Below are positions 32,682 to 61,591 of a stretch of DNA of 64,000 bases, in pieces. A program made the position numbers and the translations under genes. Each line of letters begins with the position of its first letter. The stretch's first letter is position 1. The DNA comes from Blasia pusilla (Eukaryota): positions 22,382,001 to 22,446,000 of the forward strand of contig CM114271.1 in NCBI GenBank assembly GCA_050084515.1, given 5' to 3'. The notes under the pieces are model-generated. The model was not told the DNA's origin and searched no databases. It was given only the letters and a program-made list of their open reading frames with translations.

Positions 32682-35600
32682 GGCCCATCCTATCTAATTA
32701 CATATATCAAGAATCTTGTCACCACAATCTCATAGGAGGAACATTGTGCCCCATCTCTTCAACAAGTCTGGAATTTGAAAGGAGAATTAGTTATTATATT
32801 CGCGTGAAAGACACCCGGATAAGTTAGATAGTGAGAAAAACAACAACAAGTGAATGTAGAGGCCGTAACTATGACATGATGAGTTCATAGTTGAATTTTT
32901 TGATTATTAAACAAATAGGAAGAAATATTAAAATGAAAAGGGATATTGGAAAGTACATATAACACAAAAAGGGATGCATGTTTGTTTTAGTTCATGAGAA
33001 GTAATTGATAAGGCGTTTGTGCAGTACCTTTGGAAAAAAAAGGACTAAAGATGAGAAAATTTTGGGATTATGAGAAGAAAACGCTCGTAAAAAGAAGATA
33101 AAGGCTGATTTAAAAAATATGATGACCGCAAAACTAAAGAGAAGAACAAGGGTTTCATCACACTTATGTGTGATGGTCTATATTTAATCTAATACGTTGT
33201 ATGTTCAATCTACCATGGGAAATGCTAATAATGCACGTATATTTGAATCTCTCTTCATTTTTAAATTCTTGGATAATTTCTTCCATCACTCCACTTAATA
33301 GAAGTAGCACCATAAATGCTAGAGTACTAGCTCAAACATGTATTTCCTTCGACCATCATACCAAGATATACGTAATTTTCCATATTGTTGGTATGTTTTC
33401 ATGACGATCCTTACAAATCTTTGTTATTTACCTTGACCAAAACAAGGATCAACATGAAATAAGGGTAGTTAATATCTTGGGAGCATGGGGGAGTTTCATA
33501 AAGGTTGGATATGCTCTGAGACATTTGTACGAAGTAGCAATTTAGATCGAAGTAAATTCTTAGATTGCTAATTGACCTTTAGATAATGGTGATAAAACAT
33601 GGCTATCCATTATCGGCTCTTTAGAACTATTAAAAGTGTAAGAGATTATCCTAGTAAAGTCTAGTTATCCACTTGCAAGTCCACTTGTAATCCTCCAAAA
33701 AACACCCCCAAAAATGTAGGATATTCTAAGAAATCCTCATTATTTTTTACTAGAGGGCTTCAAGTGCCTAGAAAGAATACCCTAAAGAATTTACAAGAAT
33801 GCTAATAAATGTAGATATCCACTAGTAACCCTCTAAGAACAACATTTCCAAGAGTGAAAGATAATTATTATAAGATTACTTACATACTACGTGCCTCTTC
33901 AAAAAATAGTTTTAAGAGTACAAGATAACCCTAAAAATAATTGCTATAGAATAAAAAAAAACTCAAAAAAGTAACTTAATCTTAAGAAAACATAGTCATC
34001 AATCAATAGTCATATAGACATGGTATTCACATGACGGTAAGATAATCCTAATAAAAAAGAAACTCCTCCAAAATATCTTGTAAAAGAAACTCCTCCAAAA
34101 TTTAACATAATCATAAGAAAAAAATATACATACTAGAGACCCTCCTAAATGTGTAAGATAATTTTAATAAAGCGTAGCTTTCCACTTGCAAGAAATACTC
34201 TAAAACTTCTTTAATTGGATAACTAAAAAAAAACATATATAGCCTTGAATAACTCTCAACATCTAACATCTTCCATGATCATTTAAGGATGCTCATGAAG
34301 CACAAGAACTCACTTATACTCATCTTCAACTTGACTTGAATTAATACTTGATGTGAGCAAATGTAACAATGTAAGGATGTTGTAGACTATGACCTTTACT
34401 TCTTCTAGATTTACCGCAAAGAACTCCCAAACTTTAGATTTGCAAGAAAAATACTTAGGTTGAGTCCCAAAGACTCGACTGGTTGGGCGTTCTGTGGGTA
34501 GCTGAGAAACCGCTAAGTGCTAATTGGGCCTAGTCTCCCCTGTTGTGCGCATATACATCGCTACACAACATACATTGCTGTCACCAAACACACACAAAAA
34601 CACGCACGATCCCATGCTAAATTCATGGCATCCAAACAATGAGACAAGAAGTACCAAAATATCTCTAATAAAACAAGATCCAATCTCTCTCACAACACCA
34701 TAGTTCTCACATGTCTCTCTCAAAGTCAAACCAAACCCACTCTCCTAATGAGAGCCTTGGGTTACACTCACAAGGCAAAGGACCATAGCTCCGCTGCCTC
34801 GTGCCAAGAGGTTCAACAAAGAGAGAATGAGCTCTCAAGCTCTCTCTCCTTGAGGTATACCCCTCCCCTCCCCTAAGCTCTCTCCATGGTAAACTATGCT
34901 CCCAAGTCACCTCCTTGGCTCTTGACCTCATGTAGGAGGTCAAGGGCCATTTACCAAAAATAGAATTTTGCCCATTTACTCAAAATGATACTTACCTAAA
35001 ATAGTAAGTTCCTCAATATGGCTCCAAATGAGCTGAAATGAAGGGGAAACCTGCTCTCTCGGGTTTCCGGGGCCTCATCAGGTCATCCTTGATCTCCTGA
35101 GCATGTTCTCCACTACTCGAGAAGGTGATCTACTAGATCTCATTGATCTATTCTAAAAGACGTGACAACTGTCATGCGCGTACACATTGCTACACAAGAT
35201 ACATCGTTGTCACCAAACACGCACTTCTTGTCTCGTTGTTTGGATGCCATGAGTTAGCATGGCATCCAAAAAATGAGACAAGAATTACCAAAATATCTCA
35301 AATCGCCCCCCTAGATGGTGGTTAGGTCCCTCTAACTCTAGATAGCCATCTGTCCCTACCTACCATGACATACATCTCTCGGACACTACGAGCAAGAAGG
35401 CCGGGTTCTCATGTGGCCCCATCCTTAGTCGCCTTCTTGTCATCCATGTCACAGAAACAAGTTGGAATGTAGAACTACCTACTATATGTACATATGGGAC
35501 ACATCCATCGTCCCTGAGGAACCCTAGTGAGAAGTGGCGTCAAGCATGCCATATGCCATCCTCTCGAACATCCATCACAAACTAGCATAGTGGCTGCATC

Positions 35601-35975
35601 ATGGGCAGAACCACACAACATACATCGCAAGCATGCATGAACTACTACTAAGCTCGGATCAACTGTATTATCAATGTTTGGAAGGTGACACGCCGCACAG
35701 TTACGCACATGGTCCTTCCAAACCATACCATCGCGTCACTCCAATAAGAGACCACATGATGGCAAAACCTCACGCACTCTCAAGATGGTGCGCCCTGCAA
35801 TCACATCCAACGTCGTGGATGCCGTCTGTTGCAAGTAGACATAGTCTCCCTGATGAAACCTCCGGATAGTAGGTCAATAACCACCCCCCCGAATAGTCGC
35901 ATATCTCAACGTATCCCGATGTTGCACAATCGCCAAGTTCTCAAATGCCATGGGCATCACTCTCCAAACCCACTC

Positions 35976-36978
35976 TGTCGCGCCCCTACTCTCCTTGAAC
36001 GTCAATCTTTAGTGTTGCGGAAGCATACGTTCAGTAGGTCACGAACTCATCGCTGATCTGCACCCAAACACGCACTCTCGTTAGTCGGGTCTGGGCCAAC
36101 CAGCATTCCAACCCACCGAGTCCTCAACTCGGCGTCTCATCAAGCTCAACCTTCGTTAGTTCCTAGTTTCCAAAACATGGCAAGTCCTTCAAGACTTGGA
36201 ACAGACTTCCTGGTTAGTCCAGGGATCTGAAACGGCCCTTGCGCGCCTAGCGATCCCAACTGTTCAACGGTCCTCGGGTGAGTTCCGAACCGAGACCCAA
36301 GTAATTGAGTCGCGGGGTGGAATCCAAGAGGGATGTCTAAAATCGCCTCAATAGACTTGGTGCAGGTTTTCCAACCCAACCCCCAAACTCGTGTTCCGTT
36401 CCATGCCCTTGGGCCGCCCCGCGGCGCCCAAAGTGGGGTTTGGGTTCCAAGCACTCTCGGAGACCTTCCCCCTTACTAGTACTTCTGGGGTTCTCCAATA
36501 ACTCCTCCCCTTTGGGAAAAGAGGGTCGGGCCCTTCATTGTGGCCCTCAACCCGACTCCACTTACAGTCATTTTTGGGTTTTATCTCGGCCGTTGCTTAT
36601 GCGTTTGCAGCGATCTTTGGTGCGTTTGGACCGGCTCTCCATAAGCTTTCCAACGCACCCTTATTTGTTCCAAATACATCTAGGTGCTAAAATTTATGGC
36701 CATAAATACAGTCGGAAACTCTCAAACGCTAGTGGCGTTCCAAATCGAGATCTTTCCTTTGGCAACCCACTTCCTAGACTCGACTTCTTTCAAGTCTCAT
36801 TCCGCATTTGGTCCAGGTTTCTCAGTTGCGACCATAACATCTGAAACGCGACTCCTTGCTCGCATCTCGTCTCTTGTCTCCTCTTTGAGACAACTCCAAC
36901 GCGTAAACCATCTTAGCGTGAGCTCGCTAATGTTCCGATGTTCCGCTTGGCACTTGTTTGGTCATGAGGGTCGCGACA
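35976..36978. mobile_element. Solo LTR, family C (1003 bp), inserted in the integrase of copy 2
   Basis: Termini TGTCGCG...CGCGACA with 5-bp TSD CACTC (35971-35975 and 36979-36983). Confidence 0.95.
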
Positions 36979-39529
36979 CACTCAGCCCTCTAAGAATATG
37001 CTCGTATCCATACATCAGGGTCATCAAGGTTCGACACCTCACCAACATCTCGACGAATGGCCGCAGGTAAATCTGGCTCTCGGCCATAAAGTAGCAAGTA
37101 CGGTGAAAAAGACACTAAGGATGTCTGCTTGCTGAATCTAAATCCATCGCCAACCACGGAAATTGGAGATCCCAATCTCCTAGGTGACCTCTCTACAAGC
37201 CATGCTTGCGTAATCCTCTCTTCACCGTCCGTACAACCCTCTCCGCTAGTCCATCCGCCTCAAGATGATCTCGCGAAGTGGTGCGGTGGTCAATCAACGC
37301 TTGATCACACAAGGCCTGAAACTCCTCGCGAAACTCTGTACTATGGTTTGTCAACACCTCAGTTGGTGCACCGTAATGACTCAGCACTCCATCTAGGAAG
37401 GCATATGCTACTCCCTCACTTGCTTTGTCAGGCAATGCAACCAACTCTATCCACTTCGAGAAGTGCTCGACCATCACCAACACATAACGACTATGGTGCT
37501 CTGTGAAAGGCAAAGGTCCTGCAAAATCCAAACTCCATCTATAACGTAAACCCATGATCAAAAGTGGATGCAACTGTGGAGTCAAAGCATTGAACGATGC
37601 TCAGACTCGATCACACACCATGCAATTGGCAACAAACTGTTGAACGTCAGTCTGCATGCCCCACCACCAATATTGAATCTGGAGCAAGCTGTACATCCGC
37701 GTCACTAAAAAATGACCCAACTCCTCATGGGCATGACGCACCAAATGTGCTCTCTGCAAAAGTGAGGCACTACACACACTCTACCATCCTCCCACACTTG
37801 CAACACATGTGCCCCTCCCATCGAAACTGTCTGGCTTGCTGTAGGATCCGATCCCGCTCTCTAGCACCCATTGTGCTCGCAACGCTGCCAGTACAAAGGT
37901 ACTCCAAGGCCACACCATCATCGTGAATGTCTCCGCCAGCTGTCGTCTCCTCACCGGCCTTTGGATCTAAGGACTCTCCATCAGACCTCGCCATCGAAGT
38001 CTCAACAATTTGGCTCTCCATAGCCAACAAGCGTTGTTCGAGCGACTAGCGTAAGCCACCACTAACTCTCTACCATCATTGTCATGCAAGGTGAGCACAG
38101 CTCTAAGCCCCAACATGCTCCAGCCGATATGCAACTGGAAAGGACGCCCCTGATGGGTCTCCTCAATATGGGCACGGACGTCAATATGTCCTTCAGCATA
38201 TGAAATGATCTCTATTGCTCATCCCCCCAGTGCCACTCCTCATCCACCTTGGTCATCAAGGTTAGCGGCTTTGCAATCGAGCTGAAACCCTTGACGTACC
38301 GTCAATAGAAGTTTGCCAATCCCTTGAATGAACGAACTCGACTCACATCTGTAGGGTGTGGAATGTGTGAAATAGCCTCTACCTTTGTCTGTTGCACACC
38401 AAGGCGCCCACGGTATATTGTATGACCCAAGTACTCAATGTGGTCGTAGAAGAACTTGCACTTGCCTGGATGTAGCTTCAGCCCATGTAATTGCAATCAT
38501 TGAAATACCTCCTCTAGATGTCGCTCATGCTCCTTAACCGTGGTGCTAAAGACTACGATGTCATCAATATAACACCTAGCAAAATCCAGACTTGCCAAGA
38601 TCCTATCCATGACCCTCTGAAACTCAGCCGGGGCATTCTTTAACCTAAATGGTATGAACCGTCACTGGTACAAACAATCCTTTCCATGAGGATCGATGCC
38701 CCAAAATGCCGTCTTCTGCGTGTCCTCCAATCTGATAGGCAGCTGATGGTATCCGGCTCGCAAATCCAATGAACTAAAGACCTTTGCATGCCCTAATCGC
38801 ATCAAAGATCTCCTCAGGGCTGGGTATGGCATACCTATCGGACTTCGTGTGCCGATTGATAGGTCTGTAATCTCCACACATTCGCCTATCCATCTAGTTG
38901 CCATGCATATCCTTCTTGGCGGGCATGAGAGTGGCAGATGCATACTCTCCATGCGATATCTCCACTAGTCTTGCTCCAACCAAGTCTTGGCTCCTACTAT
39001 GAATCAGAGCCCTCTCCATGTCACTGTATTTGGAGGGTTGTCGAAAAATTGGCGTGTCACTCGACAACACAATACGGATCCTTGGACCCTTTAGCATACC
39101 AAAATCATGCATACTAAATGCAAAACAACTCCTATAACTCCTAAGGAACTAGTGTATCCGATGCCGCTCTCCTCCTGTCAACTTAGGGCCCTCATCTAGC
39201 TCCCAAGTCTCCATCGTGACTACGGTAGGACTCTTTGGCACGGATTTCGGTGGTTGCTATGGTGCAACCCCGTCTCGAAAAATAGAACCCTCATCTCCAC
39301 GTGCAATACCTGGAACCACGCTCGATGCTGTGGCTATCATCTCCTCGCGTATCTGAAAAACATCCCAAGAAGTCCAAGGGTGTCTCCCCCGATCACCCTT
39401 GGTGTGTCGCCCTCCTTTGGTCTCGCCCCCAACCACTGCCTCAACCATCTCGATAGGCATGGGGCTCACAAACGAAACTTTTGTCATCTGTTGCATCCTC
39501 AAATGACGTTGCTCAGCTACTCCTAAGCT

Positions 39530-40475
39530 GAAAATCCATGTCAAGCAATTCAGGTCCATTGCCTAACCCAAGACATGACATCGTGATGGCTCTGATAGTG
39601 ACGATACTGCCGTCACTCCTGTGGAGAATCCCATCGCTCGCTCTCGCTCATCGACGTTGGGCTCCACCAACCTCTGTACGTGGTCATCCCAAACCAAGCC
39701 AGGCTTGGCCTCCTTGAATGTATAGGAAGCGGGAAAAATCACCAATGTGGGAAAGGATGCTCATGGCATGCCAATCCTATTGATCACACTCAAGGCGGTC
39801 GTTCATCTAGCCTCACTGCTTGTGATCGAAGGCTCGGATCCAATATGGAATCCACCAACAAATCGGAGGGGCTCTCCACTCTCGCATATGCCCTCCGTAA
39901 CACCTCCTGTGGTACCAAGTTGGTCCACCAAAGACATGAACAATGTGCTCGTGAACCCACACTCGCTGCATCGAACAACACTGTCGGGCCGATCCATACG
40001 CGCACATGATGCGCACTCGTCACCATGCCGGACCTTGAATCGCCCAAAATTGGCACATTCTCCAAAATGTATGTTGGAGAAAAAGGCTAATGCTCATGTA
40101 AATATTGCAAGATCCGCATCATTTCCCAAAACAACCAGGACCGAGTGTTAGCTAATCCACTACCTCGTCTAGCACTCGATTGGCCTTGACACGGCCAACC
40201 AACAATGACCAAGTCTATTGTCCCTACCTGCTCCAAGTCCTGCGCCCCAAACAATGAAATGTCCCTCGGTAGGGAACTCTCGTAACCCTGAATGGCCCAC
40301 GCAAACAACAAGTCGGGAAAACAGAGGCGTAACAATGCCACATGGTGAAGTGAAGCGCGCCTCGCAACATCATCAATCTCCACATACAGGTACTGCAGCA
40401 CGTGCACTCCAACATGCAAAACAACAGCTAACCTAGTGCTAATCCCTCCAAAGAGATCCAACACTCGAATACCCT
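39530..40475 (-). pseudogene. C5 cytosine DNA methyltransferase domain with all major motifs, DNMT3-like (copy 2)
   Basis: Motif I VLDLFGGI (~40461-40441), II YVEID, III DI, IV IDLVIVGWPCQGQS (40200-40180), V GL..TRS.LFWE, VI ENVP, VIII LWWTN, IX ERERAMGF..GVT, X HVLG*AMD. Confidence 0.92.
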
Positions 40476-43400
40476 TCCCTAGGATGCACCACACAATCGA
40501 GGTGGTGTCCAAAGGGGTCATAGCAACACTCCTACCTACTTGGGGTTCCTCTGACCCGTCATACTATGGTGCAAACGTCTAGCTCCATGCAGTTGGCACA
40601 TGCTCAGTCGCTAAGCATCAAAGCTCCTCAGTCGAGCCCCAAAGTGGCACCTCTCCTCCATGGACTCATGGCATTGCTAAATGCTGCTAAGGTCGCCATC
40701 TCTCCTAGCCGTCGCTCGATCACTACACCTATGAATCGAATGGGTAATGAGCTAAGGCGCCCATCACCTGATTGCCATCTTGGTCTGTAGGACGCTGACT
40801 CCTCCTAGTAATCCAGGGAAAACCCCATCGGGTGTAACACTACTCCACCAACCAAGACGTCGTAGGACTCTGTATCAGTCACTATCGCCTTGGCTCGCAC
40901 CATGGACTCATCTATAGGATGTCCCAAGAAAATCCTCATCACGACCTCCTGTCGGGTGATATACTGTGTGGTACTTGCTCCACCCAAGGATGTCTGTATC
41001 CGAAATGGACAACGCTCCACATTGGCTCTTGTTAAGCCCAGTCCTTTGAATGACGCTTTCCCCAACATCAGGGGTTGCGCTCTTGAATCCAACAAGACGC
41101 GCTATGGACTAAAAGCTCTACCTCCGGGACTCACTAACTGGAAGACCTCTCCCCGATTATCCAACAACACGACACCAGGAGAAACCATGGCACGCTCTAT
41201 CGCGGGTCTAGCGGGCATCTCCGCCATCCTAGCAGCCGTAGCCTGCCATGAATCTGACGTGGACGGCCCAAGCATCCGCTCCAAGGGCAGGTCCATCACC
41301 TCCTCTGCAATCAACTCTCAACGTGATGGAGGAACTCCAACTCCACGGTCACATAGCATAACGGCCAGCCAAAAAACCTCGGCGGGCATACCTTCCAACG
41401 TCATAACATCACAAGCAGAAAATAAAGGAGCGCGGTACACAACGGTGGCCGCCCCCAACAACGTGCTTGACACATGCTCCTCCTGAGCATTAGCAATTAT
41501 CTTGGTCTATTTCCTAGCTTCCCCTCATTGTGGATCCAACTCTGCGGCTGCTCCATGGTCACAACTACGGCGGCCTCTATCTGGAAAACCCTGCACATCC
41601 AACCAGGATCCTCCATATCTCTGGCTGCACCATATAATATCGATGCCACGGATCCGACATTGGGTAACCTCAATGCCATAGCGGAAATATGCTCCTGTAG
41701 TTGTTGTATATGAGCAGCCATCCCAACCTCACACATGGCATTTCCCTCGACGTGTCTAAGTGGTGGGACTCTACCTCCTCCACGGACAACTCCACCATCC
41801 TTTTGGGCAACTCCAGCTCCTCATATCCCAACGGGACCACCCGATGCACGATCTCTAGGCCCACCCGCATTGGCTACTCGCTCTGGTGCCCTCTCTCGCC
41901 CTCAGTCCGGACGTAACTCAGGGTGTAAACTGAAACTCCTGGCGCGTGTGTGACCATACTTTTAACAATAGTCACACTGATAACCTCATGGTGCAGCACC
42001 ATCTCCTCCTCCATGATGAGGCACCCGTCCATGATCCTGATGAGTGCAATCACGATGATGATGGGCTCCACCACATGACCAACAAGTAATCATAGGCGGC
42101 GGCTGCTGTTGAGCCGCATATGAAGGCGCAGGTCTCTGTGGCAAGGCCTCTTGGTATTCTCCCTGAGCTCATGGTGCCAAAGTCGACCTATCTTGGAGTC
42201 CACGTTGCTCCACTGGTGATGCAGACAATCGTGATTGCTCTCGCCTAGAACCAATGGTGGCTACGCTCTCCTCCGCCATGTTGCGCTCAATGTTCTCAAC
42301 GGTCCTAACCCGGTCGTCCATCTTGTACGCCCAACTGGGGGGACCACTCAATATGTACGGTGGATCACTAACACACTCCTCTACATGCTCCCCCTTGTCT
42401 GCAGATGACACAGAAGGAGATCAAGGTGGTCTCCCATGTGGAGACCCCTGAAACCTCGTACCACTCCGAGTAAATCCTCCAGAGCTACTCTCAGGTCCAC
42501 TACCTCGTCTCTCAAAATCCTGAAAGGACGCCATGATGGCCCTTGTGCCCCTCTCATACGATCAATCTCAATCTCACAAGTAATCCCTCAATCACTAAAA
42601 CTAAACATTTGGCACTCAATCTACACTCTCTCACTAAGACGTATGCTATGCGGAAATAAGCGGCGTAGTCCGAAAAATCAACTGATCTATTGTCTCATCG
42701 ACAAACCATCCTCAACTCTGGACATTCCACACAAGCCTATGTCCCCTAAACCCATACATCATCAATGCTCTCAGAATCAGCATGAAACCCAATATCCCAA
42801 ATAACTTCCCAATACCCGGAAATCCCTCACATGTACAGGGTAAGAGACCAGAATGGGTAACCTCACAATAATGTTAATGTCGCTCCCCGGCAAGTGCAAA
42901 TCTCAACCCCAACTCGGTCGTGAAGAAAACTCATCCAATCAGCAAGTCGTACTCCTCTTGTACTAAGGCTGCTCAACCTACTCGATGTGCAGTGCAGGTC
43001 CAGAGTTCTGGTGCGGCACTGGCGGCACGGAATGGCTACAAACGGCACGACACTCGAGAATGGGGTGCGGCACTTGGCGGCATATCCTCCTCAATTAGCA
43101 ATTCACACGCTCTGCTCCTTAGTGAAGGAGCGGCTCCATGATCGAGACGGTGCGATGCGGCCACGAGCGGCACTGTACGGCAATTTGGCGGCCCGTTGCG
43201 GCTACGGGCGTCACGGCACGGTACTCGATCGTCGTCGAGCGGCTACCAATCACAACATAGTAGCATGAAATGAAAACTCAAACACCTCTGGTTTAGGGTT
43301 TGAACAATTTAACCCTAAAAATCACCTAGAAATGGCAGTTTTGCAAGATTGACCATAACTTTTTGCTCGCAACTCCAAATTATGCACCATCTATTGCACA

Positions 43401-45149
43401 ACGTGCACAACTTCACGATCTACGACAATGTTAAAAAATGTTTTAAATCAGACATTCCTATAAAAATATACAAGGACTGCTGTAAAGTCCAATGTCCCTT
43501 TTCTCCTCCACAAAATTTGATAGCGCTTCCGCGCTGATTTCTTCCAAAAAAAATATAAAACTTGTGAGAACACAAATCAGCAAGCTACATGGTGCTCCCA
43601 AGAGCATTGGCATGGAGCAATCCGCTCCCATACTCAATTCTTATCAAAAATTGGGAAGCGGTTCTGCGTGCCACTATCCCGTACAAAAAATCAGCAAAGC
43701 AAAACAACAAACTCGCACGGCTCTTGCTCCGGTGTGCACTCCAATGAGCCATGAAGCAAGGAATACCGTCCCCCAATCTGCACCAAACATCAAGCAACCA
43801 ACGAGCTCCCCCATAAAGCTCTCTCACTCACTCATTCTCTCTTTGTAAAACAAGATCCAATCTCTCCCTCACAACACCGTGGTTCTCACATGTGTGCACT
43901 CTCACATGTCTCTCTAAATGTCAAACCAAACCCACTCTCCTAATGAGAGACTTTGGTTACACTCACAAGGCAAGGGACCATAGCTCCGTCGCCTTATGCC
44001 AAGAGGTTCAACAAAGAGAGAATGAGCTCTCAAGCTCTCTATCACGACTATTAGGATAGATCGGTGGGATCTAGCAGGGAGTCTTCACGAGAAGTGGAGG
44101 ACAGGCCGAAGAGGTCGAGGATGACATGCTGACGCCTTGAGAAACCTGAGAGAGCAGGTTTTCCCTTCGTTTTGGCTCATTTGGAGTCATAGAGAAACTT
44201 ACTATTTTGGGTAAGTTCCCATGTTGGGGATCATTGACTTTCCACTTTGGGAAGTGGTCCTTGACCCGCTACAGTAGGTCAAGAGCCAAGGAGGTGACGT
44301 GCAAGCATAGGTTAACGTTGAGAGGGCTTGGGAGAGGGAAGGGAGTATACCTCCAAGAGAGAATGAGCTCTCAAGATCTCTCTCCAAGAGAGAAAGCTTG
44401 AGAGCTCTCTCTCTTGGAGAGAGGTCTCATTCTCTCTTTGTTGAACCTCTTGGCATAAGGCGGCGGAGCTATGGTCCCTTGCTTTGTGAGTGTAACCCAA
44501 GCCTCTCATTAGGAGAGTGGGTTTGGTTTGACATGAGAGAGAATGCACACCTTTGAGAGCTATGGTGTGAGATGGTGTAGAGAGAGATTGGATCTTACTT
44601 TACAAAGAGAGAATGAGAGAATGAGAGAGTGAGAGAGCTTCATGGGGGAGCTCGCTGGTCACTCGCTGTTTTTGCAGGTTGGGGACCGTGTTCCCCATTC
44701 AGCGGCTCATGGGAGTGCTCACCGGAGCAAGGGCTGCTTTGAGTATTCTTTGCATTAGCCGATTTTTCGTGTGGAAGAGTGGCACGCGGAAGCGCTATGA
44801 TAATTTCTGATAGGGATTGATTATGGGAGCGGGTTGCCCCATTCCGGTGCTCTCAAGAGCACCATGTAGCTTGCTGATTTTTATTTTTACAGGTTTTCCA
44901 TTTTCGTTGGGAGAAAGAGACATTGGGCTTTACCACAGTCCTTGTCAATTTTTACTCGAGTGTCCAATTCCAAATATTTTTTAACACCATTGTAGATCGT
45001 GAAGCTGTGCACATTGTGCAATAAACGGTGCACAATTTAGAGTTGCAAGTAAAAAGTTATGGTCAATCTTGCAAAACTACCATTGCTAGGCAATTTTTAG
45101 GGTTAAATTGTTCAAACCCTAAACCACCCGCCATCGTCATAGTCACCGT

Positions 45150-45275
45150 CACCGATCAACGGTAAACCGTTACCATTAATGGTCAATCATCACCATCAAT
45201 GGTCAACCATCACCGTCAACGGTCCTTCGCCACCATCAACGGTCAACCGTCACCATCAACGGTCCACCATCCACC
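45150..45275. repeat. ~20-bp tandem array (CACCATCAACGGTCAACCGT-like) in the 5' leader of copy 3
   Basis: About 6 degenerate units within a ~350-bp segment that is absent from copy 2. Confidence 0.75.
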
Positions 45276-47630: not shown

Positions 47631-47642
47631 TTCATCCCCTCC
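47631..47642 (-). promoter_or_regulatory. Polypurine tract of family B
   Basis: GGAGGGGATGAA immediately precedes TGTCGT of the 3' LTR. Confidence 0.85.
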
Positions 47643-47725
47643 AAACCTGCACATCCTCCGGTATGTGCCCAAAAACATCAAGACTTCTTGCTATAGACTT
47701 ACTTATGTTGTGCCTCTAGACACAT

Positions 47726-50700: not shown

Positions 50701-53514
50701 CTACTTGTCTTCCACAACCCTCTGGTAGTTGAGTAGCAATTGGTTTCACTTTCCGGGCCACTATCTTGTATTTTGTGTGCACTTGTGCCTCCATGGGATG
50801 TTCGTCAGACTCAAACCCGTGCCCATCCGCTTCCTTCTCCGTAGATTCATATTCATTTTCTCCTTCCATGAACCTTGATATCTCTTCATGCAACTCACGC
50901 GAGTGAATTGCAATCACACTTCTATCCAGCGAATCGGTGTTCATCTGGGTAAACACCTCTTCAAGACTATCTCCAAAACCCTCTTCTTCATACATCCCAC
51001 TAATGAACTCTTCATCTAATAGAACACCCTCACATTTTAACAAACCCTTTTTTTTTTTTATAAAACGTCTTTTCTTTTCATTCATTTCTTTCATCATTTG
51101 GAATCTATTAGACCACGAAGAAAAACATTGAGAAAACCCACACCTAAACATATATGATTCTTCCCCCTCTACTAGCGGAAGACTCTTTCTATTCTCTGCA
51201 CCCCCATATTCCCGCTCTATAGGAGTGCTAACTAAAAATCCGAAAACTCTTTCTCTACCTTCATAGGACCATCTCTCAACTTCTCTCTATTCCTTTCATG
51301 ACCTATTAAAGAAGGAATTGAACTGATCTTGTTCCATCCTCGACTTCTAATACGGGCATAATGAGACCCATCATCCATGACTTTGGTCTCCATTCTAGAT
51401 CTTTGTGATGTAAGGTTGCCCAAGAATCAGAATAAGCGGCTCCATTCGAACAAAGAAATTTTGCTCAATCAACACATCTCCGATACGAGTTTTGACGGAT
51501 GGACAAGCACCATAGAGTTCACCTTTTTGGTTGTTAGCCGCTCGTAGTACCCATCCATGCCCTATATCAATTGGCCACATCCCTTTGTCGTACACACTTC
51601 GTGACATGATGTTGATCTCTGAACCATGATCAATGAGAGCCGTAATCGACTCTTGAAGAGAGCCAAGTCGAACTCTAGCCTCCGTCGTTGCACGCCCAAT
51701 ATGATCGAGAATAGTGTCCACCATTATGCCTTTCTTCACCTTGTTCTGTCAAGGCTTCTCCTACTCTCGCCTCTTTTCCCCGTAAGTCAAGCTTTTGTCC
51801 AAACACTTGGCAAAGCTCTTCATCTTCTTCTTCTGTGATGTCAGTATCCAAAGCTCTCACCATCACCATATCTGCAGTCATCTGCCTCTTCCTTTGGATC
51901 ACATCTATGATCAACTCATGAAAGTCACGTTTGGCTATGCCCAAGACTTCCCTCAAAGAAAACTCTATTTTCGCATCCAAAATCCTCTCCTCAAGAATCT
52001 CCTTTAAATTCGTGCTTGTCTCGATATGAGACTGCAACTTGTATGTAGGAGTCTTACCCTTGGTCTTCTGAGGAGACCTCAATTCGTTCTCCTTGGTCCC
52101 TGCTTCTTTGACATGAGAATCCCTCACAGATTCAGATGTGGAAGGTCCTTCTTCTCTTGATGGCTACGCCTCCGGTTGTTCTTTTCTTCTTAAGGTCCTT
52201 GCTCTTCTTGCGGCTTCCTCAACATCAACACCATCATTATCGCGTCTCCTCTTCTCCTCCACACTAGCATCTTGCCAACTCACATGTTTCTCTTGTGCTA
52301 GGTATGCTTTAACACACCCAGCTTCCACTGGATCATCCCATCCAGTCAGATGACGGATAGTCTGCCCCTCGTATCATAACTTCTCGAGGAAATTCTAATG
52401 ATTCACTTTAGCTACAGATACAATAGGCGCTTCAATTTTCTTTGCAAAGGTGTCGAATCTAATGTCGAGTGGCAACTCCTACTTGACTTCTCACTAATCC
52501 TTTCATACCTCCTCTACCAAAGTTGGTATTCAACAAAGCATACGGTCTGCGTCGAATGAATCTTCCCATCTTTGAAGTTTACTATTCCATTTCTAAGAGC
52601 TTCTGAAAATTCCTCACATTCTCGACGTTGATGCTCAACACTATCACACCATATACATCTTCTCACAAAGTTCTTACTTGTTGAAGGAGCACCAACACTA
52701 GGATTCCTATCAAGTTTAAGCTCAGCCATTTCTACTCTTAACTCTCTCAAACCTTTCACCAACTCATCAATGGTAGAATCTTCAAGCTTTGTTGGCATGG
52801 GCTTAGGCAATGGATTTGAAATTGGTACCTCCGACTTGAATACTGTGGTTCTACCTCTACTTCGACTTTGCTTTGTGAGGATAGCAATGACTTCTTCCAC
52901 TTTCTTCCAATTAGTCCGACACCTCCTTCTTCATTCTTGTCCGCCAACATTATGAAAAGCTTGTCCTCCAAATTCTCATCTACCGCCTCAAGGAATAACT
53001 CGGTTTTCCTCAAGTCTAGAGTTGCCCTTTCAGAAGGAGAAAGCTGAAAAAACCGCTTCTCAAACTCACGCAACAATTCATTTGGAGTCATTCCCTTCCC
53101 TGGACGTTGCTCTATCCATTCTAGAAAACTCCTCTTAGTCACCCGATCCACATCATCATCGAAGAATTCTCCTTTTAGCAACTGTTCGTACTCCTCCCAT
53201 GAGGTTGGATTTTCTGCTCTCAACTTCTTTACTTGACTACGGATCTCTGGTATTACAGCTAACTCAAAACTTGACACCATATCACCTTCGGGTACACGGT
53301 TTACCTCCATCTCACAAACGTACTCTCGAACATACTTGGTGATGTTCCTGCCATCAAATCTCCCCAACTTCTTCACAATCGCTTGGAGAGCCCTTGTTGA
53401 TCTTTGCTCTCCGATGTGAACTCCTCCTTGTTGGCTCAACAATGTTGTCAAAGTTCGGAGAAGATCCTCAGCTCCCTCAGTTCCCATTGATGAAGTACTC
53501 CCAAAAGTAGTCAT
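47726..53514 (-). pseudogene. Family B gag-pol, frameshifted
   Basis: Gag (GRFDGRNIT), knuckle CIWCDSVEHQRREC, protease LIDHGSEIN, RT (RFIQDMQP, FVDD), RNaseH (RWIAYI..NSVADMLSR), integrase (WWKGLYKDV..C..C, NPEANGKSERGH, WFGPY). No chromodomain. Confidence 0.95.
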
Positions 53515-53560
53515 CTTGATACGACTCCAACTTGCAAACACAAACAACCGCCTCAAAGAG

Positions 53561-53578
53561 CTCTCAGTGGAAGCACCA
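53561..53578 (-). promoter_or_regulatory. Primer-binding site of family B (tRNA-Thr-like)
   Basis: TGGTGCTTCCACTGAGAG lies 2 nt after the 5' LTR. Its complement CTCTCAGTGGAAGCACCA resembles the 3' end of plant cytosolic tRNA-Thr(AGU) as I recall it. Confidence 0.75.
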
Positions 53579-54851
53579 TTTATTGTGTCGAGAATCTTTC
53601 TTCGAGCAAGGGCGGGCCTTCTAGCTGCGGTAGATGCGGTCGATGCAAGGTGAACTCTCTAATAAGTTCTCCTTTTTCAATACAAAATTATGATGTACAC
53701 TCTCCATTCTCTCACGACAGGTATCACAAATGGAAGTGCCGAGGCGATCACTTCTTCGTAACATCGGACCCCGAAATTCCTAACTATAAAATCCCTATAA
53801 ACTATTTTACGTTTGTACACGAGGAAGATAGCACAACTAGTGTTAAACCCTACTTGACCAGGCCTATTGACATCCATGGATCGCTATATAAGGACATACA
53901 AAGTACAATCCCATGTCCTTCCATATGTGACGATAGGAAGAATCACCGGAGTTGGAGATTGCATGACTGGTTCATGAACGCCTCCCAAAGTGATAAACTA
54001 AATAGCGAGTGAACAAAGTGCCTATCTACAAAGAGTACCTTGACATGGTAAGGATTGAGGAAAGGAAAGTCGGGCACAGCTCGTGCTCCACCCCTATCCA
54101 TGCTTGACACACATTCTCTACTCTCCTCAAGAATGGGTTTTGGCGGAGTTATTCTCCCAAGAGGGGTAATCCACTCTCATTGGGGAAGTAACAAGCCAAA
54201 ACTTCCGCTATTTTAGTATGACTAAACTCCTCTACGGTGACAAACCTCTCATCCCCACACACACACACCACACTCTAGAAATCTCTCAAAGAATAGACCA
54301 TAGTCAAGTTACTCTCCCAAGAGGGGTGATCCACTCTCATTGGAAGAGCAAGCAATCCCAAAGCCATACACTCAAGAGAGACACGAGAGACTCAAGATGT
54401 GGAATAGAAGGATATGAACCCTTGAAGGTCCCTCCTCTTTATATACTCACAAGGATCCACAAGAGTACTAAATAGAGCTTATCTTATCTTGTGCCACATG
54501 GCTTCCTCTCAAGGCTTAGCCAATCACATTTTGACACAAGTAGATTTCCTCTTATCTCTTCCAAAATATCCTCTTTTACCCACATGATATTTTCCAAATT
54601 ACCCCAACTAACCTAGCCACCAACCAAGACTACTTTTGCTTTTCATTAAAGCAACTACTTTACTTTTATAAAGTCATCTTTTATTTATTACCTCCTTTTC
54701 CTAAAGTTGGGCCCGCATAAAAGAGGCACCATAAAGAGGTTTAAACATAAGAATCTCCTTTTTCTAAGCCAATTTACTTAATACTAATGAAACTCTATCT
54801 AACACTTAATGACGAACGAGTTTACACACTGGTTGATTTTACTATACGACA

Positions 54852-57800
54852 ACGTGTAGAGGAGTGTGTTAATGATCCACCATACACATTGAGTGGTCCT
54901 ACCACTTGGGCGTACGAGATGGACGACCGGGATAGAGGATCGCGTAGGTTTTCGGGTGCTGTACGCACCATAGAGCTACACGACTTCATTGCAGAGTTTA
55001 GGAGTTGGTGTGACTCACAGCGGGCTAGGAACTCTAGAGAGTTCAACCCATTTACAACATGGAACGGTATGTTCTAGCATTTAGAGGGGACACCCATGGA
55101 CGATTAGCATGAGTTCTCCCACATATATGCCCAGGAGATTGAGGCATGGCAACTCTACTATGATCCACACTATGTGTCATGGACGGAGCCGTTCCCAGAT
55201 GAGGAGGAGGAGTTAAGAGAGGCTACTTCCTCTTCCACTAGTGACTTTTTAGGAGGGATCACTCGCACTGGAGCAATTGCAACGTCTAGTCGAGTTCGTC
55301 CCAGGTTCAACCTCGTGGTTGAGTTCTTTGCTGAGTTGAGGGCTAGCTACTAAGGGGTACGGACGGAGAAGTTGCAGAGCATCCACGACTTCCAGAGGCG
55401 CCCGGGTGAGAGTTTGCGTGAGGCTTACACTCACTTGCACCGGTTGATCAACGTCACTCAAGGGGTGACAGAGGCTTAGGCTATCCAGTCATGGTACGCG
55501 ATGCTGGACCGGACCCTACGGACATAGGTGCGGGAGGGGTACTTCTTATGAACACCTCCCCTACGTTGAGAGATTTTTTTAGGACCGCCAAGAACATTGA
55601 GCGCAACATGGCAAAGGAGAGCGTAGCCACCATGGGTTCTGGGCGAGAGCAGTAGCCATTGTATGCACCACCTGTGTAGCAACGTGGACTCCAAGATAGG
55701 TCAACTTTGGCACCACGAGCTCACGGAGGGTACCAGGAGGCTGTGCCATAGAGACCTGCGCCTTCATATGCGGCTGAGGAACAACCGCCTACTGTTACTT
55801 GTTGGTCATGTGGTGGAGCCCGTCATCAATGCGATTGCACTCGTCAAGGTCATGGACGTGTGCCTCAGCATGGAGGAGGAGATGGTGCTGCACTAGGAGG
55901 TTATCAGTGTGACTATTGTCAGAGGTATGGTCATACACGTGCCAGGTGTTTCATTTTACATCATGAGTTACGTCCGGACCGAGGGCCAGAGAGGGCACTA
56001 GAGCGAGTAGCCGGTTTGGGTAGGCCTAGAGATCGTGCACGTGGTGGTTCCGTTGGGGGACGAGGATGTAGAGTTGCCCAACAGGGTGGTGGAGCTGCCC
56101 GTGGAGGAGGTAGAGTCCCACCACCTAGACGCGTCGAGGAAGATGCGGCGCGTGAGGCTAGGATGGCTGCTCAGATACATCAGCTCCAAGAGCAAATTGC
56201 CACTATGGCATTGAGATTACCCGATGTCGGATCTGTGGCATCGACATCATATGGAGCATCCTGAGATATGCAGGATCCTGGTTGGATGTGCGGGGTTGCC
56301 CAAATGGAGGCAGCCGCAATTGTGATGCGTGGAGCAGCCGTAGAGTTGGATCCACAGCGAGGGGAAGCTAGGAAACATACTAGGCTTCCTCAATCTTTCA
56401 CGTTCTCCGAGGTGATGAGGCCCCTATTGATGGGTCCTTATCAGAGGTCCTAGAGAGTTGGTGATGTTGTTGGTGTGCACGCACGGAGGGCAATGGAAGA
56501 AGCAAGTGCGACAACTCCTATTGTTGATGCTCAGGAGGGGCATGTGTCGAGCACGTTGTTGGGGGCGGCCACCATTGTGTATCGCGCTCCTTTATTTTCT
56601 CCTTCCGATGTTATGACGTTGGGAGGTACCCCCGCCGAGGCTTTTCGGCTGGCCGCTACGCTATGTGAGCATGGAGTTGGAGTTCCTGCATCACATTCAG
56701 AGGTGATTGCAGAGGAGGTGATGGACCTGCCCTTGGAGCGGATGCTCGGGCCGTCCACGTCAGATTCATGGTAGGCTGCGGCTGCTAGGCTAGCAGAGAT
56801 GCCTGCTAGACCCGCGATAGAGCATGCCATGGCTTCTCTTGGTATTGTGTTGCTGGATAACCGAGGAGTGGTCTTCCAGTTGGTCAGTCCCGGAGGTAGA
56901 GCATTTAGTCCGTAGCGCATTTTGTTGGATTCAGGAGCGCAACCCTTGATGTTGGGGAAAGCGTCATTCAGAGGATTGGGCTTGACGAGAGCCGATGTGG
57001 AGCGTTGTCCATTCCAGATACAAACATCCTTGGGTGGAGCAAGTACCACATAGTATATCACCCGACACGAGGTCGTGGTAAGGATTCGCCCGGGACATCC
57101 TACAGATGAGTCCGTGGTGCAAGCCAAGGCGATAGTGACTGATGTAGAGTCCTACGACGTCTTGGTTGGTGGAGCAGTGTTATACCCGATGGGATTTTCC
57201 CTGGATTACTAGAAGGAGTCAGTGTCCTACAGACTAGGATGGCACTCACGTGATGGGCGCCTTAGCTCATTACCCGTTCGATTCACAAGTGCAATGATAG
57301 AGCAACGGGTAGGAGAGATGGCGACCTTAGCAGCATTTAGCAGTGCCATCACTTGGCCCAATGATTTGATTGAGGGACCTGTCCATGCAGAGGATACTCC
57401 CGTTCCTGACATTTCTATGGAGAGGAGTGTCATGGTAGCCGCATCATTCCGTGGAGGAGAGGTGCCGCTGTGGGGCTCGAATGAGGAGCTTCGACGATTG
57501 GCAGATGAGCACGTGCAAACCGCGTGGAGCGAGGCATTTGCACCGGAGCATGACGGGTCTGAGGAACCTGAGGTAGTAGGGAGTGCTATGATGACACCCT
57601 TGGATACCACACCCATTGTGTGGTGTACCTCGGAGGAGGGTATTTGAATGTTAGATCTCTTTGGAGGGATTAGCACCGGGTTAGTTGCTGTTTTGCAGGC
57701 AGGAGTGTGAGTACAGCAGTACCTGTATGTGGAGAGTGATGATGTTGCGAGGCACGTCTCACTACAACATGTGGCATAGTTATGCCTACGTTTTCCTGAC

Positions 57801-60800
57801 TTATTTTCTCCGTCCGCCATACATGGATACCTGAGTTACCTACCGAGGGATATTTCGTTGCTGGGGGTGCAGGACTTAGAGCGGGTAGGGACCATTGATT
57901 TGGTCATTGCCGGTTGGCCATGTCAGGGCCAATCGAGTGCTAGACGAGGCAGCAGGTTGGCTGACACTCGATCTAGGTTTTTTTGGGAGATGTTGAGGGT
58001 CTTACGGAAGTTGCAGGAGCACCAGTCTCGTTCTCCAGCCTAAATTCTGGAGAATGTGCCGATCTTAGGAGACTCCAGGTCATAGGTGGTGATGAGTCCT
58101 CATCAAGTCGGTGCTTGGATCGGCCCAACAGTGTTCTTGGATACGGCGAGTGTAGGTTCTAGAGCCCATTTCCTGCGTCTATGGTGGACCAACTTGGTGC
58201 CCCATGTGGTGTTACGGAGGGCGTATGCAAGAGTGGAGCGCCCCTCCCATTTGGTGGAGCCCAACGCCAACGAGAGAGAGCGGGCGATGGGATTTCCTAC
58301 AGGAGTGACGGAAGGAGATCGACACACCAGGGAAGATCGGAAGAGACTCCCTTGGACTTCTTGGGATGTTTTGCAGGTATGTGAGGAGATGATAGCCACA
58401 ACATCGAGCGTGGTTCCGGGCACTGCATGTGGAGGAGATCAGAGTTTGTAGTTGGCTGCAGGAGAGCGGTTGAGTGTTGTTGTTCAAGACGGGGTTGCAC
58501 CATAGCAACCACCGATACCCGTGCCGGAGAGTCCTATTGTAGTCACGATGGAGACTTGGGAGCTAGATATAGGCCCTAAGTTGAGAGGAGGAGAGCGGCG
58601 CCGAATACATAAGTTCCTCAAGAGTTATAGGAGTTGTTTTACGTTTAGCATGGAGGATTTGGGTATGTTGAAGGGACCGGGGATCTGCATTGAGTTGTCG
58701 AGTGATACGCCGATCTTTTGACGACCCTACAAGTATAATGATATGGAGAATCCTCTGATTCAGAGTAGGAGCCAGGACTTGGTCGGAGCAGGACTAGTGG
58801 AGATGTCGCATGGGGAGTATGCATCTGCCACTGTCATGCCCGCCAAGAAGGATGTGCATGGCAACTGGACGGATAGGCGGATGTGTGGGGATTATCGACC
58901 TATCAATCGGCAAACAAAGTCCGATAGGCATGCCATGCCCACCCCTGAGGAAATCTTTGATGCGATTGGTCATGCAAAGGTCTTTAGTTCATTGGATTTG
59001 CGAACCGGATACCATCAGTTGCCTATCAGATTTGAGGACACGTAGAAGATGGCATTTTGGGGCATCGATCCTCATAGGAAGGATTTTTTGTACCAATGGT
59101 AGTTCTTACTATTTGGGTTAAAGAACGCCTTGGCGGAGTTTCACAGGGTCATACATAGGATCTTGGCTGGTCTGGATTTTGCTAGGTCTTATATTGATGA
59201 CATCGTAGTCTTTAGCGCCATGGTTGAGGAGCATGAGCGATATCTAGAGGAGGTGTTTTGACGATTGCAATTACATGGGCTGAAGCTATATCCAGGCAAG
59301 TGCAAGTTCTTCTACGACCAGATTGAGTACTTGGGTCATATGACATACCCAGGGGGCCTTGGTGTTCAGCACACGAAGGTAGAGGCTATCTCATGCATTC
59401 CACGCCCTACAGATGTGAGTTGTGTTCACGCATTCATGGGATTGGCAAACTTCTAACGGCTGTACGTCAAGGGATTCAGTTTGATTGCGAAGTTGCTAAT
59501 CTTGCTGGCCAAGGTGGATCACGAGTCGCACTGGGGGGATGAGCACGAGCGAGCATTTTAGTCGCTCTAGGACAAGTTGATGTCCGTGCCCATCTTGAGG
59601 AGACCGATCAGGGGGCATCCTTTCCAGTTGCACACAGATTGGAGCATGTTGGGGCTTAGCGCGGTGCTCACCCAGCATGATGATGAGGGTAGAGAGTTCG
59701 TGGTGGCTTACGCTAGCCGCTCGAACAACGCTGTAGAGTACAGCTTGTATGAGGGTGAGTGCTTGGCTGCAGTGTGCTTGGCTGGTGGAGAGTCCTTGGA
59801 TACCAAGGCCAGTGAGGAGACCACAGGTGGCAGAGATATTCATGATGATAGAGTAGTCTTGGAGTACCTTTGTACTGGCAGCGTTGCGAGCACCATGGAT
59901 GCTAGAGAGCGGGATCGGATCCTACAGCGGGCTAGACGGTTCCGTTGGGAGGGGACACATGTTTTGAGGGTTTGGGAGGATGGTAGAGTTCGCATAGTGC
60001 CGGATCCTTTGCTGAGAGCACGACTAGTGCAGCATGCATACGAGGAGTTGGGTCACTTTGGGGTGAAGCGGACGTACAGCTTGCTCCAGATTCAGTATTG
60101 GTGGCGAGGCAAAGAGATTGACGTTCAGCAGTTTGTTGCCAAATGCATGGTGTGTGATCGGGTCCGAGCATCGTTCAATGCTCCGACTCCACAGTTGTAT
60201 CCATTACCTATCATGGGCTTAGGGTGTAGATGGAGTTTGGATTTTGCAGGACCTTTGCCTTTGACGGAGCGTCACAATCGTTATGTGCTGGTGATGGTGG
60301 AGCACTTCTCGAAGTGGATCAAGTTGGTTGCATTTCCTGACAAAGCGAGTGAGGGAGTAGCATATGCCTTCCTTGACAGAGTGTTGAGTCATTATGGCGC
60401 ACCGGCTGAGGTGTTGACAGAGCAGGGTATCGAGTTTCGCGGTGAGTTCCAGGCCTTGTGTGATCAGGCGCTGATCAACCACCGCACGACTTCGCGAGAT
60501 CATCTTGAGGCGGATGGATTAGAGGAGAGATTTGTGCAGACGGTGAAGAGGGGCTTACGTAAGTATGGCTTGTAGAGAGGTCACCTAGGAGATTGGGACC
60601 TCTAATTGCCGTGGTTGGCGATGGGATACAGATTCAACAGGAAGGCATCCTTAGCGTCTTTTTCACCATACTTGCTACTTTATGGCCGAGAGCCAAATTT
60701 ACCAGCGGCCATTCGTCAAGATGCTAGTGAGGTCCTAGACCTTGATGACCCAGATGTATGGATGCAAGCATGTTCTCAGAGGGCTGAGTTGTTTTAGAGA

Positions 60801-61277
60801 GTGATGCCCATGGCGTTCGAGAACTTGGCGATTGCGCAACATCGGGATACGTTGAGGTATGCGACTGTTCGGGATGGTGGTTATCAACCAACTATGTGGA
60901 GGTTTCATCAGGGAGATTATGTCTACTTGCAGCAGACGACACCGACGATGTTGGATGTGATAGTAGGACACACTATCCCGAGAATGCGTGACGTTTTGTC
61001 ATCCGGTGTTCTCTTGCAGGAGGGATGCGATGGTATGGTATGGAAGGACCATGTGCATAATTATGCGCCATGTCACCTTCCTAACATTGATGGTACAATA
61101 GATCCGAGCTTAGCAGTAGTTCTTGCAGGCTTGCATTGTATGTTGTGTGGTTCTGCCCGTGGTGCGGCCACGATGCTAGTATGTGATGGATGCTCGAGAG
61201 GTTGGCATATGGCATGTCTGATGCCACCTCTCACTAGGTTTCCTTGGGGATGATGGATGTGTCCCAGATGTACAAAG
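54852..61277 (+). pseudogene. Gag-Pol of copy 3: Gag/Zn knuckle-protease-DNMT-RT-RNaseH-integrase-PHD
   Basis: ORF-track fragments starting at 55860, 56268, 56475, 57222, 57858, 58086, 58521, 58743, 59265, 59577, 60606 and 60801 all share one frame, broken only by stops. Motifs CDYCQRYGHTRARC, LLDSGA, LDLFGGI, GWPCQG, ENVP, YIDD, HTDWS, WSLDFAGP, CDGCSRGWHMAC. Confidence 0.92.
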
Positions 61278-61591
61278 AGGAGATACTAGGTAGGTTTCGA
61301 TTCTGACTTTTTTTGTGAGATGGATGACAGGAAGGCGACTAACGATGGGGCCACATGAGCACACGGCCTTTCTGCTCTTAGCATCCTAGAGATGTATGTC
61401 ATGGTAGGTAGGGATAGATGGCTATCTGGAGTTAGAGGGACCTAACCACCAGCTAGGGGGGCGATTGGAGATATTTTGGCACTTATCGCCTCTGTGTATG
61501 GATGCCATGAGTTAGCATGGGATCGTGTGTGTTTGTGTGTGTGTTCGATGATAGTGATGTATGTTGTGTAGCGATGCGTATGTGCACGACA

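Follow-up and report, generated by a model that had tools for sequence, protein, structure and literature searches.

Split direct repeats in Ty3/gypsy-type retrotransposons with a DDE integrase, from decayed copies in Blasia pusilla and related metagenome loci

We analyzed a 64,000-nt stretch of Blasia pusilla DNA (NCBI GenBank assembly GCA_050084515.1, contig CM114271.1, positions 22,382,001 to 22,446,000 of the forward strand; hereafter the window, in whose own numbering all window coordinates are given), which contains three decayed, nested copies of one gypsy-type retrotransposon family, resolved by self-comparison and by tblastn with intact relatives and approximately 85% alike. In this clade, two repeat segments, A and B, are arranged in a split order, and the integrated unit reads 4-bp target-site duplication (TSD)-A1-primer-binding site (PBS)-gag/pol-polypurine tract (PPT)-B1-nn-A2-B2-TSD, in which nn is a 2-nt spacer. 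Split direct repeats have hitherto been taken as a hallmark of tyrosine-recombinase retroelements. Our results indicated that elements with such repeats can also have 4-bp TSDs, a PPT, a self-primer PBS, and, in place of a tyrosine recombinase, an ordinary DDE integrase.

The layout was established across the clade from metagenome contigs scanned with an integrase alignment, which confirmed 490 relatives, 80 of whose loci were kept. These loci and the window were searched by BLAST with sequences of A, B, and the leader from five families, and 57 of the 80 loci matched. Contigs representing one insertion were merged (L011 with L017, L045 with L046, L066 with L067, L070 with L076, L072 with L073, L034 with L037, L063 with L064 and L065, and L054 with L068); L060 is possibly the same insertion as L063, and L021, whose contig ends 9 nt after B, was dropped. 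No B segment was found beside A1 at any of 18 left ends (16 merged loci and two in the window), all of which carried A only. The right ends read either B-nn-A-B (20, including copy 2 of the window and L072, whose B2 is without its first ~150 nt) or B followed by unrelated DNA (about 21, plus copy 3 of the window), and three were cut or unclear (L049, L054, and L078). Thus, paired identical LTRs (long terminal repeats) were not found at the integrated ends, and canonical AB...AB copies were absent from the 18 left ends of the related loci and the window. The element termini were TGTCA...TGACA, and B was shorter than A in all cases.

The TSDs delimited the same unit. A perfect 4-bp TSD surrounded the whole A1...B1-nn-A2-B2 unit in five of six complete units (L015, AAGG; L017, TCTC; L070, ACCT; L074, ATGT; and L072, CCAC), the sixth, L067, having the imperfect pair ATTA/ACTA. 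Perfect TSDs also surrounded all five A...B forms checked (L009, L014, L019, L037, and L056) as well as copy 3 of the window, which makes 11 of the 12 elements checked; no TSD was present around A2-B2 alone in the complete metagenome units checked. An initial annotation of the window had taken TSD-A1...B1-nn-A2-B2-TSD, with no B after A1, as the normal form of the element, and the left-end and TSD counts bear this out; B1-nn-A2-B2 does not consist of separate insertions, as the TSD flanks the whole unit and not A2-B2. From the three decayed copies of the window taken alone, the layout might be read as a local accident, in which the 5' B of an AB...AB element was lost and a second B arose by duplication near the 3' LTR, or in which A2-B2 arrived as a separate solo or non-autonomous insertion. 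This explanation is very improbable, given that four sequence-unrelated families on independent contigs have the layout in common, that TSDs enclose the whole unit and never A2-B2, that the spacer has the same length in all 25 joints (see below), and that left-end B segments are absent throughout. The recurrence in independent contigs argues that the layout is not due to chance. As a separate observation, locus L079 carried two complete B-nn-A-B blocks (2769-3399 and 4870-5517) 1.5 kb apart on one contig, the second with no coding region upstream within the contig.

In the window, the complete right end was seen in copy 2, which occupies 34541-44039 on the minus strand. On that strand, the PPT AGGGGGGCG (35304-35312), in the same position as in the relatives, lies directly 5' of B1 (35170-35303, ending ...TGACA), and is followed by the spacer GT (35168-35169), A2 (34670-35167, starting TGTCACG), and B2 (34541-34669), which forms the right terminus and ends ...CACAACA; all coordinates initially assigned to PPT-B1-GT-A2-B2 were confirmed. 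The A1 of copy 2 is split by copy 3. Its 3' part (43847-44039, minus strand) includes a primer-like site at 44011-44027, its middle part (A positions about 146-327) lies at ~61596-61775 on the minus strand, and the window does not contain its first ~135 nt, so that copy 2 offers neither a 5' flank nor a TSD test. Copy 3 (44040-61591, plus strand) has the shorter form A1...PPT-B and is inserted in the A1 of copy 2. Its A1 (44040-44601) starts TATCACG, with a G>A change, and continues directly into the leader without B (...CTTACTTT|ACAAAGAGAG at 44601/44602); a PPT (61455-61463) precedes the single B (61464-61591), which is the right terminus and ends ...CACGACA. The TSD of copy 3 is TCTC, present at 44036-44039 and at 61592-61595; its target was a CT-rich stretch of the A1 of copy 2, and the homologous stretch of A2, which has no insertion, is shorter by 4 nt. 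Copy 3 is thus an A1...B element with a 4-bp TSD, as had been proposed. The accompanying claim that both copies begin with a full A segment starting TGTCACG stood in that A1 of copy 3 has no B, but not in its details, as copy 3 starts TATCACG and the beginning of copy 2 is missing. In the middle of B1 of copy 2 (35225-35290), a near-perfect inverted duplication (TTCTTGTCTC..GGATGCCATG..CATGGCATCC..GAGACAAGAA) stands in place of the usual sequence and is not present in B2 or in the B of copy 3.

We addressed the coding content of the element by Pfam searches, which identified RT_RNaseH, Integrase_H2C2, rve, a C-terminal PHD finger, and DNA_methylase in the open reading frames (ORFs) of the window, with the rve core in all three copies. 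In the window ORFs and the relatives, the domains followed the gypsy-type Pol order, with RT_RNaseH, RT_RNaseH_2, and RVT_1 upstream of Integrase_H2C2 and rve; no protease of Pol was identified by Pfam. The best PDB match of the relative P0005 was the Ty3 Gag-Pol polyprotein (E 4e-101). A tyrosine recombinase (PF00589) was not detected at E ≤0.01 in 16 window ORFs, a set that does not include every small ORF of the window, or in P0031 of Klebsormidium nitens, P0040, or the 2082-aa ORF of L069. These results supported the initial assignment of the element to the Ty3/gypsy type, with a DDE integrase and without a tyrosine recombinase. In copy 2, the integrase catalytic core (rve) lies at 37274-37540 and a C5 cytosine methyltransferase motif region (PF00145, E 1.3e-7) at 40105-40266, both on the minus strand, the latter upstream of the reverse transcriptase (RT) as in K. 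nitens P0031. The order of P0031 is DNA methyltransferase (DNMT)-RT-RNase H (RH)-integrase (INT), and the window copies aligned with it in the same order in tblastn, at 38-41% for copies 2 and 3 and 33% for copy 1 over the DNMT segment. By PF00145, the methyltransferase of the window elements is of the C5 cytosine type; the label Dnmt3 is that of the K. nitens element. The coding remains of copy 3 (57786-61274, plus strand) comprise DNMT, RT, RNase H, integrase, and the PHD finger (~61137-61235).

The RH-INT ORF of copy 3 matched 222 longer proteins. The closest named proteins, at 75-76% identity, came from the liverwort Calypogeia fissa (75%) and the peat moss Sphagnum fallax, and further relatives from K. 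nitens, Closterium, Haematococcus, Chlamydomonas eustigma, Volvox, and Tetraselmis. A PHD finger was present in most of the protein relatives and PF00145 in several. The window element belongs to a clade of the green lineage in which the integrase has a PHD finger at its end and some members add a C5 methyltransferase upstream of RT; it is a further member, probably from a bryophyte, of a Gypsy-DNMT3/PHD clade with split repeats.

The joints between the repeat segments differed in their behavior. In every family, B starts at the first base after a G-rich PPT. The B1|A2 spacer was exactly 2 nt in all 25 joints, none of which showed an indel (three of the rows were read by eye); it was GC in 10, GT in 6, AC in 5, AT in 3, and AA in 1, which rules out non-templated or host-derived bases as its source, 24 of the 25 being GC or its transitions. 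Decay beside the spacer (GACA>GATA and TGTCA>TATCA) fell on the cytosines of CAG/CTG. Together, the spacer spectrum and the flanking decay indicate that the ancestral joint was a perfect 12-bp palindrome, TGACA-GC-TGTCA, of whose centre the GT of the window, one C>T step from GC, is a decayed form. The intact 12-mer was found in L015, L069, and L071, compared with 0.05 chance occurrences expected in the 765 kb searched. The internal joint CA-nn-TG resembles two integrase ends and likely serves as the template for new ends. The core of the initial proposal, that a DDE integrase regenerates the ends from the internal B|A joint without a tRNA, survives.

The A2|B2 joint was mostly precise, and indels fell exactly there in three independent elements: a 17-nt filler with two extra PPT-side bases in L017, a 2-nt deletion in L070, and in L072 a deletion of ~150 nt of the B2 start that begins exactly at the A end. 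Unlike the indel-free B1-nn-A2, A2|B2 appears from these sequences to behave as a de novo end joint. Splicing was ruled out as its source, as in three families the borders A end | leader and PPT | B lack GT...AG.

The search for a primer site yielded a second common property. Directly after A1, 13-17 nt formed the perfect reverse complement of a site inside A in four sequence-unrelated families: ACTCAAAGAACTATGTT in family I (site A164-180), AATTCTAGAAAAACTA in family II (site A163-178), ACAAAGAGAGAATGAGA in the window (17 of 17 pairs with the site at 44425-44441, A positions 385-401), and AATCACCAAAAG in the fourth family, L035/L063 (site CTTTTGGTGATT). When ~600 positions were considered in each of six elements, 13-mers with a perfect reverse complement in A occurred only at offsets -3 to +3 from the A end in all six. 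The PBS of copy 3 occupies 44602-44618 (plus strand), immediately after A1, and pairs by Watson-Crick rules with the primer-like site TCTCATTCTCTCTTTGT over its whole length. In copy 2, the PBS ACAAAGAGAGAATGAGT (43830-43846, minus strand) likewise begins at the first base after A1, and A2 contains a primer-like site, GCTCATTCTCTCTTTGT (34816-34832, minus strand), and a TATA-like GTATAC. At least 14 of 17 Watson-Crick pairs were kept in five of eight left ends of family I, and at least 11 of 16 in seven of seven of family II; L037 differed from L015 by one compensatory change, T-A to C-G, in the PBS pairing. Upstream of the primer-like site, TATAAA was located at 26 nt in L015 and 31 nt in L074, a TATA box at ~30 nt in L035/L063, and GTATAC at ~30 nt in the window. 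This geometry is what would be expected of a self-primer of the Tf1 type. The initial annotation had reported no visible PBS, which holds for a tRNA-type (TGG) PBS, absent from the A1 end in every family, but not for the self-complementary PBS adjoining A1. A motif ~50 nt downstream in the window, TGGGGGAGCTCG, was considered as a tRNA PBS and rejected, being too far from A and, by eye, not a tRNA 3' end.

The transcription of the family was assessed with three raw-read RNA runs carrying the same species label as the best DNA match to the stretch, aligned to 34300-38300 at a likeness of at least 85%. Each run gave 2903-3992 aligned reads, mostly 85-95% alike, which indicates that they derive from other copies of the family. 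The first mate lay on the plus strand approximately 10-40 times more often than on the minus strand; in the usual stranded libraries, such a bias corresponds to sense RNA of a minus-strand copy. The reads covered the integrase region, PPT, B1, the spacer, and A2, including the part of A2 upstream of the primer-like site, as would be expected of a genomic RNA ending in A2. They skipped the private 1-kb insertion of copy 2 (joints 35965/35971 to 36980). The RNA joints 34620>35258 and 35218>34600 were rejected as structural variants, as they represent mosaic alignments between B1 and B2. In run X20 (window 35299), 79 RNA reads ran from the PPT into a family I-type B (TGGTACAC..GGATGCTCTCGT), which indicates expression, in the same organism, of a second subfamily close to metagenome family I.

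Since the PPT directly precedes B and the PBS directly follows A, the LTR as defined by replication is B-GC-A. Only with the LTR redefined in this manner, and the integrated copy read as circularly permuted, does the element have an LTR pair. We propose that the element is a self-primed gypsy retrotransposon whose DDE integrase opens the internal palindrome and thereby produces a circularly permuted insertion, an account that we place slightly on the probable side. The transcript would begin at the primer-like site of A1 and end at a poly(A) site within A2; the minus strand would be primed by the RNA's own 5' end, as in Tf1, and the plus strand by the PPT, and two-jump reverse transcription would give the primary cDNA [B-GC-A]-PBS...PPT-[B-GC-A]. 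The integrase would then act not at the cDNA tips but on the palindrome of the PBS-proximal LTR, cutting 3' of each of its two CA's. The former tips (A end and B start) would be joined to each other, through a 2-LTR-type circle formed ahead of the cut or through end joining afterwards. The inserted copy would accordingly be the circular permutation A...B-GC-A|B, in which A|B is the minus-strand start joined to the plus-strand start; such a joint of cDNA starts fits the occasional fillers and deletions at A2|B2 and the two extra PPT-side bases in B2 of L017. The A...B form, as in copy 3, could result from cutting of both palindromes, from cutting of a one-repeat circle, or from later B1 x B2 recombination, and, as it is without a 3' copy of R, would be expected to be a replicative dead end.

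Several observations weigh against this proposal. Cutting of the palindrome by the integrase is suggested by the form of the joint, and initiation at the primer-like site by TATA spacing and complementarity; the RNA reads, in three runs over 34300-38300, showed no pile-ups of starts or ends. The primer-like site was deleted or decayed in three of eight left ends of family I, and the PBS duplex of family II overlaps the last 3 nt of A. The heterogeneity of A2|B2 comprises three independent events only, for which post-insertion damage is possible, and all copies studied are old, with A1 and A2 about 86-93% alike. Above all, a circle with two palindromes should give the mirror permutation A-B-GC-A-PBS...B approximately half the time, and it was seen at none of the 18 left ends. 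The model thus has to assume an unexplained preference, kinetic or positional, for the PBS-proximal LTR; one conceivable source is that, B being shorter than A, the palindrome next to the PBS is closer to a cDNA tip and might become duplex early.

The same evidence bears on a mechanism like that of DIRS and PAT elements, in which a transcript from inside A1 to inside B2 would be copied into full-length cDNA without strong-stop jumps, the ends would be rebuilt on B1|A2, and a circle or complete linear form would be inserted by the DDE integrase at the rebuilt B2|A1 joint. A1...B1A2B2 is the layout by which PAT, Toc, Kangaroo, and Ngaro are defined in the description available in PMC4157794, two ends of the integrase type form a conserved palindrome at the internal joint, and B1-spacer-A2 is covered by RNA reads. 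This mechanism nevertheless seems unlikely: the PPT at B1 and the self-primer PBS at A1, present in four families, are signals of two-jump LTR replication for which it has no need; it predicts a templated and stable A2|B2, precisely where the indels of three independent elements occur; and its rebuilt circle would again carry two palindromes, with the same unexplained asymmetry. The initial comparison with PAT/TOC1/Ngaro therefore holds for the layout, but the PPT and PBS are placed as in an ordinary LTR element when the LTR is read as B-GC-A.

A further alternative arises from L069 and L071, members of a distant family from saline-lake metagenomes with an intact 2082-aa ORF. Both read PPT-B(57 nt)-TGACAGCTGTCA-A (L069:8835-8900 and L071:7054-7120); B2 was looked for after A2 in these loci and not found, and past A the contigs instead show a PBS-like site (ATTAATAAGAAC), which is complementary to A positions 96-107, and then the leader once more. 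In L071, 3.5 kb were repeated at 99.9% with a period of 8847 bp, and the pattern in the two loci may represent a tandem (head-to-tail) array, a circle, or an assembly collapse. Head-to-tail units with B-GC-A followed again by PBS-like site and leader would be produced if B2 were made by the reverse transcriptase, the plus strand jumping from the A end to the minus-strand 3' end (B start) to form a concatemer, which the integrase would cut at the nearest palindromes, with self-primed LTR replication otherwise unchanged. Such a jump would also account for A|B as the minus-strand start next to the plus-strand start, with occasional fillers as in L017. We consider it quite unlikely: L069 and L071 possibly reflect recombination at ectopic sites or the collapse of identical A copies during assembly, and the mirror jump by the minus strand would place a B at the left end, where none of 18 was found.

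Returning to the self-primed element that is opened at its internal palindrome, we also considered its extension to the whole clade. That the clade, in this reading self-primed, with a PHD finger and often a DNMT, and extending from chlorophytes to bryophytes, moved the integrase site from the LTR tips to a templated internal 12-bp palindrome, such that each replicative insertion is permuted, is a more tentative proposal, which we hold conceivable but somewhat doubtful.

The combination of gypsy domains and split repeats is already in print, in contrast to the initial claim that it was undescribed. KnitGypsy-Dnmt3 of Klebsormidium nitens has a gypsy-type Pol with a Dnmt3-related C5 methyltransferase, and its repeats are arranged as in DIRS according to the Fig. 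4c legend of de Mendoza 2018 (PMC5890265). Copy 2 of the window and 19 related right ends match this element in their DIRS-like repeats, as the window element does in carrying a methyltransferase in a gypsy polyprotein, and the order DNMT-RT-RH-INT is shared with P0031, a candidate for the element of that paper. The two differ in host, and the window copies are dead; the PBS, PPT, palindrome, and TSD are not mentioned in the available part of PMC5890265. A preprint (10.64898/2026.05.21.726589) names, in its available part, 'streptophytes (Gypsy-DNMT3)'. In Chlamydomonas reinhardtii, Gypsy-7a_cRei is reported, in the portion at hand of Craig et al. 2022 (PMC9940879), as a PHD-finger gypsy Gag-Pol element active in laboratory strains, for which 86 new insertions are recorded. 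Compared by description only, its reported repeat asymmetry is what A1 versus A2-B2 would give with an 8-bp B, whereas the legend in PMC9940879 shows no DNMT and draws PHD before INT. Chlorophyte relatives were among the protein matches to the RH-INT ORF of copy 3.

The A1...B1-A2-B2 split direct repeats are a likeness to PAT, Toc, Kangaroo, and Ngaro as these appear in the accessible text of PMC4157794. The difference lies in the enzymes and ends: the enzyme encoded by those elements is a tyrosine recombinase and not a DDE integrase, whereas the window clade has an rve integrase with the H2C2 zinc domain, TG...CA ends, 4-bp TSDs, a PPT, and a PBS. Insertion without TSD is characteristic of the DIRS order and Ngaro, and 4-bp TSDs are present in the clade. 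The likeness to PAT and Ngaro is convergent. Tf1/Sushi elements are known to prime themselves, and for Tcn1 and TAR of plants the same was predicted, as far as the accessible text of PMC6317226 goes; the window clade, as judged from sequence, would share with these elements a PBS that pairs with the beginning of the element's own RNA and not with a tRNA, and these elements differ in having ordinary paired LTRs and chromodomains. The available text of this plant LTR survey (PMC6317226) does not mention the PHD clade, 'PHD' occurring 0 times. Retroviral integrases (PFV and HIV-1) cut the palindromic 2-LTR circle junction internally, as stated in the accessible portions of PMC1180852 and PMC1905944. 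The palindromic CA..TG joint of two ends is common to both systems; the retroviral palindrome arises from joined cDNA tips and has a 4-nt centre, whereas that of the window clade has a 2-nt centre and would be templated inside each LTR, the joined tips then being A2|B2. In a literature search of partial coverage, the self-primer PBS, the PPT-B adjacency, the palindrome, and the TSD of the clade were not found described, and on the layout of gypsy elements of this kind it found only the Fig. 4c legend of PMC5890265, within the part of that paper available. The mechanistic reading (a self-primed element with LTR = B-GC-A and the internal palindrome as integrase site) may be new; to that reading itself we give roughly even weight.

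If the internal palindrome is indeed the integrase site, the clade would provide a concrete route from paired LTRs to split repeats. The split would then follow from where the genome is opened and not from tyrosine recombination, which could explain how DIRS/PAT layouts arose from LTR ancestors, and the clade would represent a natural case of an integrase acting at an internal palindrome, an activity for which retroviral 2-LTR junctions, in vitro and in cells, are so far the known examples. Since a relative in Chlamydomonas laboratory strains is active, according to the available part of PMC9940879, the mechanism is open to study there. In practical terms, LTR-pair finders and screens for a tRNA PBS will miss or mis-delimit such elements, which are abundant in bryophyte-associated and algal data, as the 490 relatives confirmed in one scan illustrate. 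In run X1 (DNA), the summed contig word depth over A and B (34568-35371) was approximately 3-10 times that over the integrase region. This depth is not a copy number but hints that the host has numerous solo A-B units or non-autonomous derivatives.

The remaining features of the window concern copy 1 and later insertions. Copy 1 (12652-16990, plus strand) is truncated at both ends, with its 5' break in the DNMT region. On its right side, B is cut by two 1.3-kb LTR-like repeats (16991-18267 and 18343-19615), which form a tandem pair, 87-95% alike, and are related to the LTR of a younger, unrelated LTR retrotransposon nested in copy 3 (46355-54855, coding strand minus). The LTRs of the latter (46362-47630 and 53585-54851) are 1.27 kb long and 99.4% alike. 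The 1-kb insertion in the integrase region of copy 2 (35976-36975) is absent from copies 1 and 3 and is 74% similar to window 19623-20128. At the break point of the A1 of copy 2 (61776-61850), there is a 34-nt tandem duplication (CTTGATCGATCTCCCCAAGTTGCTTGCC.. twice), beyond which further repeats are shared with window 22149-22391 and 25157-25511.

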